64,000 nt of DNA from Escherichia phage PHB11: the sequence record MK524176.1; one strand, given 5' to 3'. The translations under genes and the position numbers were made by a program. The notes under the pieces are model-generated. The model was given only the letters and a program-made list of their open reading frames with translations, was not told where the DNA came from and ran no database searches. This document shows positions 3,616-44,876 of the stretch, piece by piece. The number at the start of each line of letters is the position of its first letter. Within the stretch, counting starts at the first letter, position 1.

Positions 3616-4014
3616 ATGAAAACAGAAGCTAGAGTAATTAATGGTAAGAAAGTAAATATCATTCTGCTTGGGGCAAGAGATGGTATTAAGATGTCTATGA
3701 AGTTGGGTAAAATTGTTGTTCCAACTTTTGCACAGATGCTATCAAGTCTGACTGATAAAGATAAGAAAGAAGTTCCAATGGTTCCATTTAAAGAACTTGT
3801 TGAGGCTTGTTTTGACAGAATTGAAGAAATTAACCTTGAAGAAATGGCTACCCTGCTATTTCAAGGGGCAACTGTTGATGACTTCCCACTTAATATTGAT
3901 ACATACTTCCAAGCAAACTATGGCGAATTTATTGATTACTTAGCATTTGCGCTGGAGGCAAACTTCGGAAGTTTTTTCGAAGCAAGCATTTTCAAAAGCC
4001 TAACTTCTCAGTAA
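3616..4014 (+). CDS. Tail assembly chaperone (gpG-like, zero-frame product)
   Basis: 132 aa ORF immediately upstream of the tape measure gene; contains slippery heptamer TTTTTTC near its 3' end. Confidence 0.5.
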   Translation: MKTEARVINGKKVNIILLGARDGIKMSMKLGKIVVPTFAQMLSSLTDKDKKEVPMVPFKELVEACFDRIEEINLEEMATLLFQGATVDDFPLNIDTYFQANYGEFIDYLAFALEANFGSFFEASIFKSLTSQ

Positions 4015-4255
4015 ACATGGGTAACACTCTACAGACACCACTAACTGATGCTGCTGTAGAGGCAACCTATGAAGAAGCAGACGAGATGAAATTTGTGCTT
4101 GCTATTTATGGTATGGAAGGGTGTAAAGAAACACTTGACCAACTCTTTGCTATGACATTCTCTGATTTATTATCATTGAGACAATTTCTTGAAATTCAGA
4201 GGTCGTATAAAGAGGAAATTGCTTACAACGAACTTAGAAGAGCAGGAAAAATGTA

Positions 4256-4256
<1 letters not shown>
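3616..4256 (+). CDS. Predicted G-T-like chaperone fusion made by -1 frameshifting at 3972-3978
   Basis: ORF 4017..4256 is in the -1 frame relative to 3616..4014 and that frame has no stop between the slip site and 4256. Confidence 0.45.
3972..3978 (+). other. Candidate -1 programmed ribosomal frameshift site (slippery heptamer T_TTT_TTC)
   Basis: In-frame X_XXY_YYZ heptamer; the -1 frame is open from 3978 through ORF 4017..4256. Confidence 0.5.
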
Positions 4257-9619
<5,363 letters not shown>

Positions 9620-21793: not shown

Positions 21794-21821
21794 GGTGAGT
21801 ACCCGTTGGTTTATGCTGCTC

Positions 21822-21849
21822 AGTATACTCACCAAATTTTCTATGTCAA
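21822..21849 (-). promoter_or_regulatory. Sigma70-like promoter just downstream of the ligase stop, reading into E2 and the cassette
   Basis: On the - strand: TTGACA, 16 bp spacer, TATACT. Confidence 0.45.
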
Positions 21850-21855
21850 CAACTT

Positions 21856-22959
21856 TTATTCATAATCTCGTATAACGAGGCCAACAGGGAACTGTAAAGA
21901 ACCTTTACGAGTCATCTTCTGGAACTGAACCGTCAAAGGTTTCCCGATAAACTCTTCAGGATGTTCAGCAAGATACTGTTTCTTCTCATGAGTAGTCTTC
22001 CATGAGACATCTACAAAGACGTTAGGAAGAGTCTCTACAACGAACTTGCCATGACCACGCTTATCAGTCTTTACACCAGTCACTTTAAACTCTTCAGTGT
22101 GCATCTTCTTGTGCTTAATCAAGAAGTATGAACGGTGACAACACTCATAGAAGGAGTCTTCAGAGATTGAACGGTACATTGCACCTTCAAACTTGGCTTC
22201 AACCCACTTATCATGAGCTTCATCAAACTCTTCCCAAGAATTTACACGACGAGACTTAACAGGAACAACTTTACAGCCGTCTCTAAAGTCATTCAATGGT
22301 GAAGTCTCAATAATATCTCTACGCTCAGGCCACGTCTTAGTACTGTCACAGATATCATACCAGTAAAACTTGAGCAAGTGTCTGTCAGGATTGTCTTCAT
22401 TTTTAATCATGGAGACGATATCTTCTAAGTCCCACCCATGAGCATAAATCTCTCCATCAAATTCATCAACATCTTTGTGGAGCCTTAACATTGCCATAAT
22501 GTCAGGTATTAGTTCAGTAGGGATTTTATAAACAGTATTCTCACGAGAATATGCTGTAAACACACTACCAATACTCAAGTGTCTTGAAATCCTACAACGT
22601 ACACCATCAAGCTTCGGTTGAGCATCAGCAGGGAACTTCAGATACTTTGCATGACTAACCTTTGCAGCATCATGAGCAAGCTGTACACCTACCTTCTCAG
22701 TATTCTGTGCAGACTCTTTTGTGTAAGCATAGCCTTTGCGGTCAACTTGCTTTTTATACTTAGCAGCAACTTCAAAGAGAGCTTGCTGTTCAGCATTACG
22801 CTCATTCTTTTTACCGATGTTTTTAGGTTCTGCTGTATACTCTTCAAACATCATCTTGCCATTTTCTTTACCGTAGGTTGTAATAACTTTGTCACCTACA
22901 GCAACGCATGACCAGACGTTAAAAGAGCCGTCTTTATTTTGTTTGTACAGAATTGTCAT
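21856..22959 (-). CDS. ATP-dependent DNA ligase
   Basis: KxDG adenylation motif in ...AQPKLDGVRCRIS...; size (367 aa) typical of T7-type ligases. Confidence 0.75.
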   Translation of the reverse strand: MTILYKQNKDGSFNVWSCVAVGDKVITTYGKENGKMMFEEYTAEPKNIGKKNERNAEQQALFEVAAKYKKQVDRKGYAYTKESAQNTEKVGVQLAHDAAKVSHAKYLKFPADAQPKLDGVRCRISRHLSIGSVFTAYSRENTVYKIPTELIPDIMAMLRLHKDVDEFDGEIYAHGWDLEDIVSMIKNEDNPDRHLLKFYWYDICDSTKTWPERRDIIETSPLNDFRDGCKVVPVKSRRVNSWEEFDEAHDKWVEAKFEGAMYRSISEDSFYECCHRSYFLIKHKKMHTEEFKVTGVKTDKRGHGKFVVETLPNVFVDVSWKTTHEKKQYLAEHPEEFIGKPLTVQFQKMTRKGSLQFPVGLVIRDYE

Positions 22960-23162
22960 TTTCTCTTACCACCAATTTCTACGTCAATAACTTGAACATC
23001 ACCAGCAACATCAAACTTATGAATGATGCTTTCCACAGTGTAAGTCCAACCTTCGATGCGAACCAACTCACCTTCTCGTGGGACGATTGGGTTACGTTGA
23101 GCTACCGTTGTAGTGGAGTGAACAACATCATAACGGTAGATATAGTTTACTAAGACTTGCAT
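22956..23162 (-). CDS. Hypothetical small protein
   Basis: 68 aa ORF coupled to the ligase gene. Confidence 0.35.
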   Translation of the reverse strand: MQVLVNYIYRYDVVHSTTTVAQRNPIVPREGELVRIEGWTYTVESIIHKFDVAGDVQVIDVEIGGKRK

Positions 23163-23171
23163 ATCTTCACC

Positions 23172-23378
23172 TTAAAAGAATAAGTCAGATGCTTTTGGGT
23201 TTGTCTGTTCACGATAATCTAACTCTCTGTATGTTTTCAGATAGTGGGTAATTTGTGCAGGCAATTCATGGCTTTTAACATCTGAACGTAGTAGTTGCCA
23301 ATCAAAACCTTTACCGACTCTCCCATATAAACTAAATAATTTTACTTTGCTTTTCATTTTGGTATCCCCAATACTCAA
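23172..23378 (-). CDS. Hypothetical small protein
   Basis: 68 aa ORF. Confidence 0.3.
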   Translation of the reverse strand: MSIGDTKMKSKVKLFSLYGRVGKGFDWQLLRSDVKSHELPAQITHYLKTYRELDYREQTNPKASDLFF

Positions 23379-23587
23379 AAGTCAATACTGATACGTTCAC
23401 CCTTAAGAACACCTGTACGGTCTCTTGCAATCTTACCGTCAACGATAAGGATATGCGCGACCTTTAAAGCCTCACGATTAAAACCTTTTACGAACTTACT
23501 AGGCATCACCACAATAAGCATCTCTTGAATCAACTCTGGAGTGTAGCAATTATCGTGAAGTTGCTGAATAACGTCTGAAAGTGTCAT
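23375..23587 (-). CDS. Hypothetical small protein
   Basis: 70 aa ORF. Confidence 0.35.
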   Translation of the reverse strand: MTLSDVIQQLHDNCYTPELIQEMLIVVMPSKFVKGFNREALKVAHILIVDGKIARDRTGVLKGERISIDF

Positions 23588-23638
23588 ATAGCCTCCTATA
23601 TAAGATATTGTATAAGGTACTCTTCCATGAGCACCTTG

Positions 23639-24154
23639 TCAACTTAGTTTTGCAAACTCTCCGTGGAGTTTTATCGCAGCTTCACAGTAAGCTTTATGGG
23701 CCTCTTCTTCTGTTGTGTACGTCCCGATATGTATAGTCTTACCATTATGGCTAATCTGGGCTTTCCACTTACCAGACTTACTTCTACTTGTACCTTTTAA
23801 GTTTTTTGATGTTCTAGGTTGCCTCCTATTAGACATGTTCTGTTCTTTTGTGGCCTCTCTAAGATTGTCCCAAGCATTATTCAAACCGTTCCCGTCTTTG
23901 TGGTCAATATGATTGTCAGGCCACTTACCTGTCATCCAGAACCAAGCAATTCGGTGATTGCCTGTCCTGTATCCTAAAATCTGGGTTTGCATATACACAC
24001 CAGACCTTGTGCGCTTGATTGTACCAGCCTGTCTTCCAATCACCACCCTACTGCTATGTGGAGGTCTGCCAATCCAAGTCAAGACCCCTGTTTCGGGGTC
24101 GTAGTCTAACCAAGATTTTAACTGTTCATGTGTGAATCCACAATCTCTCATCAA
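23639..24154 (-). CDS. HNH homing endonuclease with AP2 DNA-binding domain
   Basis: HNH_3-type motif HIDHKDGNGLNNAWDNLREAT and AP2-like block GKWKAQISHNGKTIHIGTYTTEEEAHKAY; 4 nt overlap with the DNA polymerase gene. Confidence 0.7.
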   Translation of the reverse strand: MMRDCGFTHEQLKSWLDYDPETGVLTWIGRPPHSSRVVIGRQAGTIKRTRSGVYMQTQILGYRTGNHRIAWFWMTGKWPDNHIDHKDGNGLNNAWDNLREATKEQNMSNRRQPRTSKNLKGTSRSKSGKWKAQISHNGKTIHIGTYTTEEEAHKAYCEAAIKLHGEFAKLS

Positions 24155-26850
24155 TGTACCTCATACCACGATTTACCAACCTTACCAGTACCTGTAACAA
24201 GTGTTTCTTTCTTTAGTCCTAAGTTTTTAGAAGCTTGTCCATAATACCAATCAGTGACAGCTTTCACCTCTGCCGTCATACTTTCTGGGCATTCCCAACT
24301 CGTCTCATCGTGATAGGAGCACAATAAACGAGCACCTATAGCTGGTTTGCGACCGTTTAACTTCATCAAACCTTCGTCAATCATACGACGACAAGCGAGG
24401 TTAATTGCTTCATTCTGAATCTGGCTTTCCGAACCCATGAGCAAATAATTCAATAACTTATGTGGAGATTTACACCACAACCAAGCTCCAGCAACCTTTA
24501 CAAAACCCCCTTTAGAGATTGCAGCAGTCTTACCAAACACCTCTTCAAGTGCCTTTTTAGTCGCTTTGTAGTCAGCTTCCAAGTCATCTAGTAGCTTCTT
24601 AATCTTAGGCAAACGGATAAAGTAAGTCTGTTTAGTCAGTGCACCTTCCTGAGTAGTTGCAGCTTTAATTGTCTTAGCAAACTTCTCATCACCTGCACCA
24701 AACAGTAGTGCATAGATACCATTCTTAGCTTTCTTACGACCCTTGCTAATCTCATGAAGAAGGTTCTCATCCTGAGTAGCTCGACAAGTCAAGATATCCT
24801 GCTCATCATTCAAGCTAAAGTAAATACTATTCAGTGTGTGTGCATCAGTCCCTGAATAGACAACGTAAAGGTCATTCTCAGAGTCATAACGCAGATACTT
24901 GTCAACTTCTGGGTTAAGGTACTCATCAAAATGTTTGCAGTAATAGCGTCCATCTTCTTGACGAATAAACTCAATCTCTTCTTTACCTTGCGTTACCGCT
25001 TTGGTGAAGTCTTTGTCACCCATAAAGTTACAAAGGAGAACTAGCTGGGCTGAGTTCATGTCTACAGAGACAACGTTAGTACCTTCTTCACAAATCCACA
25101 CTGCCCTCATTGGCTCACCGTAAACAGCAGCACCAGAAGGTACGTTTACAATACCATACTGAGTCATACGTCCAGTAGAAGTACCAAACACCATTGCACC
25201 AGCACTAAGGCGACCATCAGGACGAATCTGGTTCAACCAACCTTTTTCATCATCTTTTGAGTTCTCAATAGTTCTGCGTCGGTGCATCAAAGTATAGTAT
25301 TTAGCAATCTTCTGTCCAAGCTCACCTTCAATCGTATCATAAGATGATTCAGTAAGTTTTGGTGAAGTACGGATTAAGCAAGGCTCAAGCAAATCTGTGT
25401 ACTTCTTCACAGACCAGTTATGCTCAATGTACTGGACACCTTCGTGTTCAACATAACTCAAGCCACATCGTTCAACCATCTCCTGCCACTTAGGATGCTT
25501 TGTAATCATCTTTTTGTTGTCTTTGAAACGACAAACTTTGACAGGACGACCGTCAGAGTCTTTCTTGTAGTTCCAGTCATCTGGAATCCAACCAACTGAT
25601 TTCAAGTAATCTTTAACAACTGCTACCTGAGTCATACGAGAAACTTCGAACTCAATTGGTGTATATGGTGCATCAATCAAACCTGTGTAGCGACTTGACT
25701 CAAGCTCAAAGTGGTTAACGACATGGCTGTTATAGTACTTCACAGTTTTAACTGTTTTTACTGGCTTCCAGTCTTTGCACTTCTTACCAATCTTTGCATT
25801 CAACTCATTGCAAATTGCACGAGCATCCTTCATTGCTACAAAACCTTCCTTGTACTCTTCACCAGTTACAGAGTTGGTTGGTGTATAGCAATTCCGCTTT
25901 TCAATGTTAAAAATCTTTGTAGTTGGCTTACCAAATGGCTTGATTTCGTATGTCTGCATCTCACCGTTACGTACCTGTTGACGATACTTTGTCTTAGGGT
26001 ACTTGGTAATTCTCTTCAGTCCATCTGCATGACCGAATGCTTCAACATACTCATTCCAAGCTTTTGCAAACTCTTCTCCAGTGACTTTACCTTTGGTCTT
26101 AATAGTTGGAGGAAGATGTGGTTCAACCTCTGAAGCAAGCTCATTAGTCAACTTGTCAAGTTCCTTTACATGGAACTCCATAAGCTCTTTATCAGCTTTC
26201 CAACCATTGATAGCTTGTTGACTCATCCAGAAAGATGTTTCTTTAGCTCGCATATAGGTTTCATAGGTATCTATGCCACACTTCTTTAGCTTGAGATATT
26301 CATTATCCAGTGCACGTTTAGTTTTGGCGTTAATACGGATATCTTCTACAACACGAGTGAAGATTTCTGCATTCCACACACCCCAATGTTCAATCTCTGG
26401 TTTACGTACACCAACACGAGCACCCCATGCTGCCAAGCCATGAGCACCTTTATAGCCCTTTGGAGTTGGTCTATCCATCCACTGAACACGAGACTGGATA
26501 AGAGAATCCTGAAAGAAATTACTCCACGGCTTACACTTTGGATTATCAAAGTTCCACAAATCAGGTGCAATGTGATTGAAAACCCACCAGTCATATCCCA
26601 GACCATTATGGATGCAAAGTCGTTTTGCCTTTAACGCAAACTCAACACCTTCACGCAAGCCACCCTTAATGTACTTGGTATACTTGTGACCGAGGATAGG
26701 CTCATCTGTAAAGACCCATACAGGTGGCTCTTCATCGTCAGATTTATAGTCTGCGAAAGCCATTACGTGCACTTTAGTGAACTCAAGGAGTAAACCATCA
26801 GTTTCTGTATCACCAACTAAATGTAAGTTTTTAAAATCTACGTTTTCCAT
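24151..26850 (-). CDS. DNA polymerase, family A (T7 gp5-like) with 3'-5' exonuclease domain
   Basis: Exo I VGDTETDG; motif A DMNSAQLVLL; motif B RKKAKNGIYALLFGAG; motif C SYHDE; start set at the Met preceded by GAGGGAG SD (ORF track begins at 26880). Confidence 0.85.
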   Translation of the reverse strand: MENVDFKNLHLVGDTETDGLLLEFTKVHVMAFADYKSDDEEPPVWVFTDEPILGHKYTKYIKGGLREGVEFALKAKRLCIHNGLGYDWWVFNHIAPDLWNFDNPKCKPWSNFFQDSLIQSRVQWMDRPTPKGYKGAHGLAAWGARVGVRKPEIEHWGVWNAEIFTRVVEDIRINAKTKRALDNEYLKLKKCGIDTYETYMRAKETSFWMSQQAINGWKADKELMEFHVKELDKLTNELASEVEPHLPPTIKTKGKVTGEEFAKAWNEYVEAFGHADGLKRITKYPKTKYRQQVRNGEMQTYEIKPFGKPTTKIFNIEKRNCYTPTNSVTGEEYKEGFVAMKDARAICNELNAKIGKKCKDWKPVKTVKTVKYYNSHVVNHFELESSRYTGLIDAPYTPIEFEVSRMTQVAVVKDYLKSVGWIPDDWNYKKDSDGRPVKVCRFKDNKKMITKHPKWQEMVERCGLSYVEHEGVQYIEHNWSVKKYTDLLEPCLIRTSPKLTESSYDTIEGELGQKIAKYYTLMHRRRTIENSKDDEKGWLNQIRPDGRLSAGAMVFGTSTGRMTQYGIVNVPSGAAVYGEPMRAVWICEEGTNVVSVDMNSAQLVLLCNFMGDKDFTKAVTQGKEEIEFIRQEDGRYYCKHFDEYLNPEVDKYLRYDSENDLYVVYSGTDAHTLNSIYFSLNDEQDILTCRATQDENLLHEISKGRKKAKNGIYALLFGAGDEKFAKTIKAATTQEGALTKQTYFIRLPKIKKLLDDLEADYKATKKALEEVFGKTAAISKGGFVKVAGAWLWCKSPHKLLNYLLMGSESQIQNEAINLACRRMIDEGLMKLNGRKPAIGARLLCSYHDETSWECPESMTAEVKAVTDWYYGQASKNLGLKKETLVTGTGKVGKSWYEVH

Positions 26851-26910
26851 TTTTACTCCCTCTAAAATCATTAACCCCATACATTACTGCAAAAAATTAT
26901 AAAAAGCAAG

Positions 26911-26940
26911 TTGACAATGTACTTGACAAGGTGTTAATCT
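26911..26940 (+). promoter_or_regulatory. Candidate rightward promoter(s) in the divergent pol / 27108 intergenic region
   Basis: Two TTGACA hexamers (26911-26916, 26923-26928) with only weak -10 candidates (TTAATC/TAATCT); a perfect TATAAT on the - strand at 26896-26901. Confidence 0.3.
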
Positions 26941-27107
26941 TTGCGAAGTGGGTTTTTACTTAAAAGGTTACTTAACAGTTTAACTATACAGATACTTTAA
27001 AACTCTTAAAAGATTATTTAATAGCTTTTAAAAAGCTTTAAAGTATAACGTATAGAATACGTTAAGATAAAAGATTAAAACTTAATAGTTACTTAAAAGA
27101 GGCTTAC

Positions 27108-27530
27108 ATGCAGAAAATGTTTGTTCACCCAGACATAGCTGACTTTGTTAGAGCTTTGCAGAAGTTGGAAGAACTTGACATTGCTGCTCAACGGGAATAT
27201 GCTCACCATCACAGGAGAATGGTTGATATACAACATGAAATAGAGTTGTCTGAAAACTATGAAGATGACTTAAAATGCTCTGTGTTTGAGCATATGAAAG
27301 ATGTTGCTACAGCGAGACGTAAAGCTAAAGACACAGTTGCTTTACTAGATTCTCTTAAAAAGAGGTTGCAAAGTGGTACAGACCTGTGTAATCTAGCGTC
27401 ACTGATTAACGATGTTGAAACTTCTTGGGATAGGCATTACTATCCACGTTCTGAAAAGACACTTGACTTTTCTTCATCTGAAAACTTAAAATGTTCTAGA
27501 AAGAAACTTAACCAACTGAGAGAGAAATAA
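27108..27530 (+). CDS. Hypothetical protein
   Basis: 140 aa ORF, first gene of the rightward operon. Confidence 0.4.
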   Translation: MQKMFVHPDIADFVRALQKLEELDIAAQREYAHHHRRMVDIQHEIELSENYEDDLKCSVFEHMKDVATARRKAKDTVALLDSLKKRLQSGTDLCNLASLINDVETSWDRHYYPRSEKTLDFSSSENLKCSRKKLNQLREK

Positions 27531-32730: not shown

Positions 32731-33771
32731 ATGGAGAAGTATACGCTAACAAAACTTCCCGATTCAGTTACACATGTCTTTATTGACTCTGACAGTATTG
32801 CCTATAAAGGTGCTTGTGTAGTTGAGAAAGCAAAATATAAATATGTCAATAAACTCACAGCAGAAGAATCTGAACCATTTGATAATGCAAAAGATGCCGC
32901 AAGATGGTTAGCAGACCAGAGAATCCTTGTAGAAGAGCTTGGCCTAGCATTTGATGAAGATGAATGGGAAAGACAGACTTGGAAAGAAGCTAAGAGTGAA
33001 AAAGAAGCTATCATGGCTACTCAGCAGGTTCTTCAGGAATGGCTTAAGGTTGTTGGTAAAGAAAGAACTTGGGTAGGTTACTTAACAGAGAAAGGTGTGC
33101 ATAAGCATAAAGACGTTAAAGGTCTTGAGCACCAATATCAAGGTAACCGTAAAGATGCTGTCACACCAACACACTTAGTTGCTTGTCGTGAATATCTCCT
33201 GTCAAGACCAGAGTTCAAACTCTTAAAGGGTGGCTTCGAAGCCGACTCAATCGTTATTGCTAAAGCTGAAAAGATGGGTAAGAAAGCTGCTCTTATGAGT
33301 ATTGACAAAGACCTTCGACAAGCTGAAGGTACTTATTGTATTGATATGACTTATGAAAAGTCACCACTAATTTTTATTGCTGATAATAATGTTGGTGATA
33401 TCTGGGATTGCCCTATCAAATCAAAACCAAAAGCTGCAAAAACAGTTGGTGTAGGTTTTAAATTCTTGTGTTATCAGGCTGTTGCTGGAGATAATGCAGA
33501 CAACTACTTCGGACTTAAAGGTGCTGGAAAAGTAGCTGTGATGAATGCTTTAGATGGTAAAGAGACTTATAAAGAGTGTCTTGATGCTATCTATGAACTC
33601 TATGCTAAAAAAGAGTCTTATACCTATGTATCATGGGATGGACAGACTGTTACCAAAACACCATTAGAGTTAATGGAACAGCATTTCTGGATAGCATATC
33701 AAGAGAGAAATCCAAAAGATAATTTCTCTTTTAAGAAATATAATTGGGAGCCGTGTATGAATGAAGATTAA
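32731..33771 (+). CDS. 5'-3' exonuclease (T7 gp6-like)
   Basis: Blocks VFIDSDSIAYKGA, MSIDKDLRQ and GDNADNYFGLKGAGKV matching the T7 gene 6 exonuclease pattern. Confidence 0.6.
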   Translation: MEKYTLTKLPDSVTHVFIDSDSIAYKGACVVEKAKYKYVNKLTAEESEPFDNAKDAARWLADQRILVEELGLAFDEDEWERQTWKEAKSEKEAIMATQQVLQEWLKVVGKERTWVGYLTEKGVHKHKDVKGLEHQYQGNRKDAVTPTHLVACREYLLSRPEFKLLKGGFEADSIVIAKAEKMGKKAALMSIDKDLRQAEGTYCIDMTYEKSPLIFIADNNVGDIWDCPIKSKPKAAKTVGVGFKFLCYQAVAGDNADNYFGLKGAGKVAVMNALDGKETYKECLDAIYELYAKKESYTYVSWDGQTVTKTPLELMEQHFWIAYQERNPKDNFSFKKYNWEPCMNED

Positions 33772-34258
33772 AGGATTTGGCAATTGCCCTACCTATGGTC
33801 ATTGGGTATCTTTATGTGGGGAAGTTGACCCCACTAAACATTTTGGTTTTGTCTATTTAGTACACTGTAAGAAGACCGGACAATATTATATCGGAAAGAA
33901 ACAGCTTAATAGTGTGACCAAAAGAAAAGTTGCTGGCAAGACTCGGAAGAAGGTAGTCACTAAGGAGAGTGATTGGGTGACTTATGAGACTTCTTCTGAG
34001 TATATTAAAAAAGATATTGAGAGCTTTGGAAAAGAATTTTTTGACTTTTACATTATCCAAACCTACTACACGAAAGGTGGTCTAGTTTATGGTGAAGCAA
34101 ACCTCCAACATAAATTCGATGTAATGACAAAAAGGATTGACTCTAAGCTCAGACTCTTCTACAATGCCAATATTGCAGCAATTAAGTTTATCACTAAAGA
34201 AACTTATGAAGATGCTGAAAAAAGAATCCATAAGGTAATGAAAGCAAATTGTGCTTGA
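33761..34258 (+). CDS. GIY-YIG-like (T5orf172-type) domain protein, possible nuclease
   Basis: N-terminal FGFVYLVHCKKTGQYYIGKK resembles the GIY...YIG motif pair; remainder unassigned. Confidence 0.35.
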   Translation: MKIKGFGNCPTYGHWVSLCGEVDPTKHFGFVYLVHCKKTGQYYIGKKQLNSVTKRKVAGKTRKKVVTKESDWVTYETSSEYIKKDIESFGKEFFDFYIIQTYYTKGGLVYGEANLQHKFDVMTKRIDSKLRLFYNANIAAIKFITKETYEDAEKRIHKVMKANCA

Positions 34259-44360: not shown

Positions 44361-44876
44361 ATGTACCTGTCAAACCTGAAACGTTCGGCTGCAATGTCAG
44401 TTCTAAGACTCAGCTTTGAGGAACGTCAAGAGTTCATTGACTCCCACCAATACGACCCTTCTAACTCAAACCACATGATTCTCTGGAATCGTGATAACTT
44501 CCGTGAAAGAGCACTTGTCCGTTATTACCCACACTACACAATAGATAACCTGTATGAATGGTGTGTCGTGAAGAACACTATTACAACACTGAACAATCTT
44601 TGCAGGTATACAGGTAAGCAAACATTCACACTAGGCCACCATAAACCTATTACAAAAGGTGGTGAGCATCACTGTGCGAACTGGTTTATCCAAACTAAAG
44701 CTGATAACCAGAAGCAAGGAGATAGACTTCTAAGCACCCCTAAGATGACCTATGAAGAACAAGAGAAATATATCAAAAATAATATGCCAGATGTGCTTGA
44801 CAACAACTATACAGATTTGGCAATATCTCTCCTGTTGAAGTACGAGACAGTTTATAGGGCAACTTACAATGGCTAA
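44361..44876 (+). CDS. HNH-like nuclease motif protein
   Basis: GHHKPITKGGEHHCANW resembles the HH-P-GG-N core of HNH nucleases; the downstream Cys/His part is not evident. Confidence 0.4.
   Translation: MYLSNLKRSAAMSVLRLSFEERQEFIDSHQYDPSNSNHMILWNRDNFRERALVRYYPHYTIDNLYEWCVVKNTITTLNNLCRYTGKQTFTLGHHKPITKGGEHHCANWFIQTKADNQKQGDRLLSTPKMTYEEQEKYIKNNMPDVLDNNYTDLAISLLLKYETVYRATYNG

Follow-up and report, generated by a model that had tools for sequence, protein, structure and literature searches.

In Escherichia phage PHB11, the DNA polymerase gene is followed directly, at its stop codon, by a short open reading frame that looks like a nuclease gene, and the question it raises is whether this is a mobile gene that has inserted here and, if so, how it moves. 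An earlier note, made from the sequence alone, had read it as a free-standing homing endonuclease of the HNH-AP2 kind. We have followed this up by computational analysis of a 64,000-nucleotide stretch of the phage genome (record MK524176.1), which is referred to as the window and to which all coordinates refer unless another locus is named.

The gene and its neighbours

The 5.2 kb around the gene (21800..27000) were matched in a GenBank comparison by 261 phage records at approximately 90–97% identity, nearly all of them from Felixounavirus. The felixounaviruses are Felix O1-like myoviruses of the Ounavirinae, whose hosts are Salmonella, Escherichia, Shigella and Citrobacter. Felixounavirus DNA from the pol, HNH and intron regions, at 81–99% identity, also occurs in two records named for Campylobacter phages (A132, MG065664.1, and A126, MG065668.1) and in one named for Staphylococcus. 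These records carry the names of unrelated hosts and are probably mislabelled or contaminated assemblies.

The locus lies on the minus strand, in the order family-A DNA polymerase gene (pol), HNH-AP2 ORF, three small ORFs and ATP-dependent DNA ligase gene. The window pol (24151..26880, given as the longest ORF; PF00476, E 1.2e-14) is uninterrupted and has no intron, and is annotated at 2700–2733 nt in relatives. Its stop codon TGA (24153..24151) is the immediate upstream neighbour of the HNH gene. On the other side, the three small ORFs (23375..23587, 23172..23378 and 22956..23162) separate the HNH gene from the ligase gene (21856..22959), so that the gene does not lie directly at a pol-ligase junction, the term used in the earlier note. 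Across all the loci compared, the small ORFs of this interval (window 22956..23587) form a shuffled set. One family, c0 (PHROG 4230, 70–72 aa), is present in one or two paralogous copies per locus, which have the common 5' end ATGACACTTTCAGA, and the ORFs c8, c6, c7 and c4 are optional.

The HNH-AP2 gene, which we call type A, extends over 23639..24151 and encodes 170 aa, from an ATG at 24151 to the stop codon TGA at 23641..23639. Read from the first in-frame TTG, the ORF is also intact (23639..24154, 171 aa), and it was in this form that it had been described as overlapping the pol stop by 4 nt. This is correct for the TTG, but not for the ATG (24151..24149), which is the codon after it and shares 1 nt with the pol stop in the arrangement TGATG. 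The ATG is the likelier start, because of this arrangement, because a Shine-Dalgarno-like GAGGT (24162..24158) lies 6 nt before it and merely 3 nt before the TTG, and because the RefSeq gene of Salmonella phage SP116, which is 98.8% identical, is annotated as 513 nt, that is, from the ATG. The real protein probably has 170 aa.

Both of the domains recognised in the earlier note are matched well above the curated Pfam thresholds: HNH_3 (PF13392) with E 1.9e-14 and 53.5 bits against a cut-off of 24.8, at aa 67–107, and AP2 (PF00847) with E 2.1e-9 and 38 bits against a cut-off of 33.3, at aa 123–165 (171-aa numbering). In 170-aa numbering, the protein consists of an N-terminal region (aa 1–60), HNH_3 (approximately aa 66–106) and AP2 (approximately aa 122–164). 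PHROG 99, 'HNH endonuclease', is matched at 8.7e-64. A tblastn search of the window found no second HNH-AP2 copy.

Comparison with solved structures matches the AP2 part to plant AP2/ERF domains (WRI1, 7wq5, E 2.7e-8) and the HNH motif to the homing endonuclease I-HmuI (1u3e, E 0.018). The latter alignment runs residue by residue through DHKDGN..NN...NLR..T...N, and places D83, H84, N96 and N105 on D74, H75, N87 and N96 of I-HmuI, which we take to be the catalytic His and the metal-binding Asp/Asn residues to which they correspond. The four residues are invariant among six distinct type A sequences. An AlphaFold model calculated from the single sequence has a mean pLDDT of 50.8 and is usable in the AP2 part alone. 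Here residues 121–164 have a pLDDT of 78–90 and an AP2-like E-E-E-H topology, with a three-stranded sheet and a helix, while residues 27–115 have a pLDDT below 50 and the HNH part is unreliable. A Foldseek search of the PDB with the model gave AP2 matches only, with weak E-values, the best being the AP2 domain of TEM1 (rmsd 1.8 Å over 42 columns).

Occupied and empty alleles

An uninterrupted empty junction of 54 nt is present in 103 of the 261 GenBank relatives. The type A gene is present, over at least 80% of its length, in 49 of them, and in 58 the same slot holds a diverged HNH-AP2 gene, called type B (at least 80% of the gene found in phage dune, where a 47% identical HNH-AP2 occupies the equivalent position). 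SP116 has the gene after pol as the window does, at 98.8% nucleotide and 99.4% amino acid identity; Shy and SP3_SHan have small ORFs directly after pol and no nuclease gene. Endonuclease-free alleles are thus common, and the comparison of junctions in related phages that the earlier note had proposed shows both presence and absence of the gene, where universal presence without such alleles had been named there as the refuting outcome.

We classified 34 loci, including the window and 29 from IMG/VR, and found 16 to be empty, 8 to be type A, 8 type B and 2 to carry a third type, C, though some of the IMG/VR loci are GenBank phages over again (for example, L027 is SP116) and the counts are not independent samples. 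Amino acid identity to the window gene is 86–100% for type A, 43–48% for type B and 39% for type C.

The boundaries of the insertion are precise. Alignment of the junctions shows that 508 nt (23643..24150, minus strand) stand where empty alleles have the 6 nt TTAGTA, which amounts to a net gain of 502 nt, and correspondingly a downstream TTGACA stands at an offset of 511 from the end of pol where the locus is type A and of 9 where it is empty. The coding strand of the empty allele reads ...AAA AGC TGG CTT GAA GTA CAC TAA TTAGTA TTGACAAGGTGCTCATGGAAGAGTACCTT..., and the empty junction of, for example, phages wV8, Shy or SP3 contains ...GGTAAAAGCTGGCTTGAAGTACACTAATTAGTATTGACAAGG.... The type A allele reads ...AAA TCG TGG TAT GAG GTA CAT TGA TG AGA... 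on the pol side and ...AAA CTA AGT TGA CAAGGTGCTCATGG... at the HNH end. The pol stop of the empty alleles is the same aligned codon.

The downstream boundary consists of the TTGACA together with a 9-bp hairpin (23610..23642, minus strand; arms 23637..23629 and 23622..23614). The HNH gene has its stop codon within the TTGACA, and the element is intact in empty as well as occupied alleles, following the pol stop in the former and the HNH stop in the latter. It is unique in the window, with 0 chance matches, and near-invariant across the loci, and its consensus fold has 2 compensatory pairs in the distant Erwinia-phage-like loci L024 and L025. A simple scan recognised the element neither as a sigma-70 promoter nor as an intrinsic terminator.

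On the upstream side the difference between the alleles extends into pol. The window pol agrees with empty-type pol through GGTAAA and then switches at TCG, giving a tail made up of the last 8 codons and part of the stop (24152..24177, minus strand; ...TCG TGG TAT GAG GTA CAT TGA). The sequence TGG TAT GAG GTA CAT TGA is common to all 8 type A loci, irrespective of what lies upstream, and is absent from 15 of the 16 empty ones. Its changes create the GAGGT in front of the HNH start and turn pol residue −4 from Leu to Tyr. They also make the carrier allele (TAT GAG GTA CAT TGA) different from the empty allele (CTT GAA GTA CAC TAA followed by TTAGTA) next to the insertion site, which is where a target site would be expected, as far as this can be placed from the linked substitutions only. 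The tail is a probable remnant of a disrupted target site, and its changes would be expected to block cleavage of the carrier allele.

One empty locus, L019 (IMGVR_UViG_2706796270_000001, approximately 3880–3910), combines the type-A-linked TAT GAG codons with CAC TAA TTAGTA. This could be the footprint of a lost endonuclease gene or a cleavage-resistant empty allele, and because of it the tail signature is imperfectly tied to the gene.

The window is without two small ORFs that are present in Shy and SP3, and one could suppose that the HNH insertion had deleted them. This idea was rejected, since in the empty loci L005, L028 and L031 the downstream genes are arranged as they are in the window. 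The insertion was therefore clean, and the two-ORF difference from Shy and SP3 is unrelated mosaicism.

The gene and the DNA next to it have different histories. Comparison of the window with SP116 gives 98.8% identity for the HNH gene (dS 0.03) and 75.8% for the last 900 nt of pol (dS 1.8), with identity climbing from approximately 0.7 to 1.0 at a point about 30 nt ahead of the HNH start. These are thus copies of the same cassette in different backgrounds, because the flanking 3' end of pol is only about 76% identical. When pol backgrounds were defined as clusters of the 510 nt of pol directly upstream of the tail, type A was present in six of them, and type A, type B and empty states were mixed inside single clusters; the window's own cluster contains one empty and three type B alleles. 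In the distant metagenomic phage L026, the 3' end of pol is 65% identical and the downstream region is unrelated, and homology to the window, at 91.6%, extends from 24 nt before the pol stop to approximately 12 nt before the HNH stop. These limits indicate a mobile unit of about 525 bp, consisting of the ORF and the last 7–8 pol codons.

All the type A copies examined are intact and 170 aa long, with dN/dS of 0.04–0.25, and by this measure the gene is under purifying selection. The frequency of endonuclease-free relatives, the precise boundaries and the decoupling from pol support the description of the gene as a mobile insertion in the earlier note, and the comparison with relatives shows a cassette of about 0.5 kb with precise limits, gained and lost independently of its flanks.

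Other explanations and the polymerase intron

The most serious alternative is that the gene has been shuffled by general homologous or illegitimate recombination only, and that its product, whether a nuclease that has decayed or been domesticated or a DNA-binding regulator of the AP2 type, no longer homes. The catalytic D-H...N...N are kept in all copies, and the low dN/dS applies to the whole ORF, HNH part included, neither of which fits well with decay. We therefore think it unlikely, although Barth et al. (PMC10448857) caution that sequence alone is insufficient to infer homing, and although the small non-nuclease ORFs between pol and the ligase gene are likewise variable in presence and rearranged and the 3' kilobase of pol is generally mosaic. 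Since the whole pol-ligase interval is mosaic, ordinary recombination could explain part of the pattern. It does less well with the remaining observations, namely that the cassette ends are identical in unrelated flanks (L026), that the type A gene is consistently accompanied by a pol tail in which the site is altered, and that three diverged nuclease lineages converge on one slot.

The 3' kilobase of pol just mentioned (window 24212..25170, minus strand) is a mosaic hot spot, with an identity to SP116 of 58–85%, as against 98% for the part of pol upstream of 25172. It includes the site at which an intron is inserted in many relatives, and may thus reflect repeated co-conversion by intron and homing endonuclease elements. 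The intron is of group I (Rfam RF00028, 60.3 bits, E 8.8e-15), is found in pol of about 102 relatives, and lies approximately 555 nt before the pol stop. It occupies 3867–4201 in L035 (Salmonella phage NJ12), corresponding to approximately 24705–24710 in the intron-less window, and occurs either without an ORF (272 nt) or with an ORF annotated as 'endonuclease VII' (approximately 763 nt).

With a group I intron in pol of 102 relatives, and in at least 17 of the 49 type A records, it is worth considering whether homing is collaborative, with the HNH protein cutting the intron site about 555 nt upstream and either mobilising the intron or depending on it. Precedents are F-CphI at psbA in cyanophages and MobE in T4, according to references cited in PMC10448857. 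All four combinations of intron and type A gene occur, however, which amounts to independent assortment: type A is found without the intron in the window and SP116, and the intron is found with an empty slot in JH2, FSL SP-012 and SP4. A cut 555 nt away would also carry the intervening pol along, and type A carriers differ there by 15–35%, their homology beginning just 24–30 nt before the pol stop. Because the 555 nt are not co-inherited and the two elements assort independently, we consider a distant cut at the intron site very improbable.

The remaining suggestion, that the ORF is not free-standing and belongs to a 3'-terminal intron or intein of pol, has practically nothing to recommend it beyond the fact that the ORF adjoins and overlaps pol and that relatives have an intron elsewhere in that gene. 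It was rejected, since the end of pol falls on the same codon when empty alleles are aligned, Rfam gave no match in 22800..27200, and the HNH ORF is in another frame, after the pol stop codon.

Proposed homing mechanism and related nucleases

We consider it likely that this is a free-standing HNH-AP2 homing endonuclease gene, located in a recurrent slot right after the Felixounavirus pol stop and spreading by homing. The steps proposed here are modelled on what is established for free-standing phage homing endonucleases (T4 Seg/Mob, F-CphI, I-HmuI) and on PMC10448857.

The gene would have no promoter of its own and would be co-transcribed with pol. A consensus scan found no promoter or terminator between pol and the HNH gene, with overall counts at the level of shuffled sequence, and the record of phage ASO1B has annotated promoters upstream of pol only and a terminator after the ligase gene only. 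The possibility of a separate promoter or terminator for the HNH gene was therefore discarded, and it is because the scan and the ASO1B annotation agree in placing neither in this position that co-transcription is suggested. Translation would be coupled to the pol stop through TGATG, using the GAGGT embedded in the final pol codons.

In a mixed infection, the AP2 domain, probably with the N-terminal region, would recognise the empty allele at the junction of the pol stop and TTGACA, and a single ββα-metal site (D83, H84, N96, N105) would nick or cut it. I-HmuI nicks one strand, which makes nicking plausible for the window protein. Recombinational repair from the carrier genome would then copy in the gene and, by co-conversion, a short tract next to it, and the change of CTT GAA GTA CAC TAA to TAT GAG GTA CAT TGA would destroy the site, so that the carrier is immune. 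Cleavage, homing and the exclusion of co-infecting relatives, the last of which the earlier note had held such genes able to mediate, are thus predicted activities of the window protein.

ORFs of Felix O1 are reportedly among the HNH-AP2 examples given by Magnani and colleagues in 2004. HNH-AP2 is a recognised family of homing endonucleases (Magnani, Sjölander & Hake 2004, Plant Cell 16:2265, as cited in PMC10448857), and the window protein resembles its members in having HNH_3 followed by a C-terminal AP2 and in being phage-borne and free-standing, with no essential difference. HNH-AP2 genes are often neighbours of DNA polymerase genes in phages, and for IPA-HNH and related HNH-AP2 genes the proportion is 29% (Barth et al., PMC10448857), homing endonuclease genes mark boundaries of genetic exchange (PMC10448857), and felixounaviruses have 2–6 of them per genome (PMC8300805). 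Near-identical genes at this position are annotated as 'HNH endonuclease' or 'HNH homing endonuclease' in dozens of GenBank and RefSeq records; YP_009146338.1 of Salmonella phage SP116 (NC_027329), ASO1B_094 and the gene in BPS17L1 are annotated versions of the window gene. Given the recognised family and these annotations, the finding is already known, in kind and in instance, and what is added is the population-level anatomy of the slot.

I-HmuI of Bacillus phage SPO1 (PDB 1U3E) is similar in its HNH motif, its monomeric size, its one active site and its association with a pol gene. It differs in being intron-encoded and in having a helix-turn-helix C-terminal domain where the window protein has AP2, and similarity outside the motif is weak (E 0.018). 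T4 Seg/Mob and the IPA-HNH and T5orf172 homing endonuclease genes of ICP1 (PMC10448857), which are free-standing and show intronless homing with co-conversion, are alike in their placement between or next to essential genes. T4 Seg/Mob and the ICP1 genes also have in common with the window gene that the allele with the gene differs in sequence, which protects it in their case and would do so here, that recombination boundaries are marked, and that distinct endonuclease genes occur at one locus (PMC10448857). There are two differences: the catalytic domains of IPA-HNH have diverged too far to be matched by the HNH_3 profile, of which the window protein has a canonical example, and in the window cassette co-conversion appears to have covered a very short tract on the side of pol (approximately 18–30 nt).

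Types A, B and C end alike in ...EEAHKAYCEAAIKLHGEFAKLS and have one 3' boundary. In type C (L022 and L023, approximately 3881–4390), the ATG lies inside pol, whose last 17 nt are overlapped out of frame. It is possible, though we put it forward only tentatively, that several alleles contend for the slot after the pol stop, where at least three HNH-AP2 lineages, A, B and C (39–48% identical), with a homogenised 3' end in common, replace each other or the empty state. If so, homing endonuclease genes would be competing against one another, each variant targeting the alleles of the others, and each lineage would be rewriting the last codons of an essential polymerase (Leu to Tyr, or the 17-nt overlap of type C). 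Such competition could also account for the hypervariable 3' kilobase of pol.

The gene has little importance beyond annotation, except as what looks like a clear natural case of intronless homing with sharp cassette ends. The many empty, occupied and replaced alleles would make the felixounaviruses convenient for measuring homing, co-conversion length and the turnover of homing endonuclease genes. As felixounaviruses are used in biocontrol of Salmonella and E. coli, HNH nucleases may bias which genome wins in cocktails and mixed infections.

Two other ORFs in the window had been grouped with the HNH-AP2 gene as further nucleases of this kind. The ORF at 33761..34258 (plus strand, 165 aa) does have a GIY-YIG domain of the SegE type (PF19835, 1.4e-27), but is present in 261 relatives, and also in Erwinia phages, which argues against mobility; it has the look of a GIY-YIG protein that has become fixed or domesticated, and not of a mobile homing endonuclease. 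No DNA-binding domain was detected in it. It overlaps the end of an upstream exonuclease-like gene by 11 nt, and is annotated as 'NAD synthetase' in databases. The ORF at 44361..44876 (plus strand, 171 aa) belongs to PHROG 3500, of unknown function, has a weak match to the HNH family PHROG 2214 (2.2e-6) and no HNH match in Pfam, and is present in 240 relatives, and its inclusion among mobile nucleases is not upheld. Being present in 261 and 240 relatives, the two ORFs behave as core genes, and polymorphism is thus not general to the nuclease-like genes of this genome. One record labels a stretch homologous to the ORF at 44361..44876 as 'attP'.
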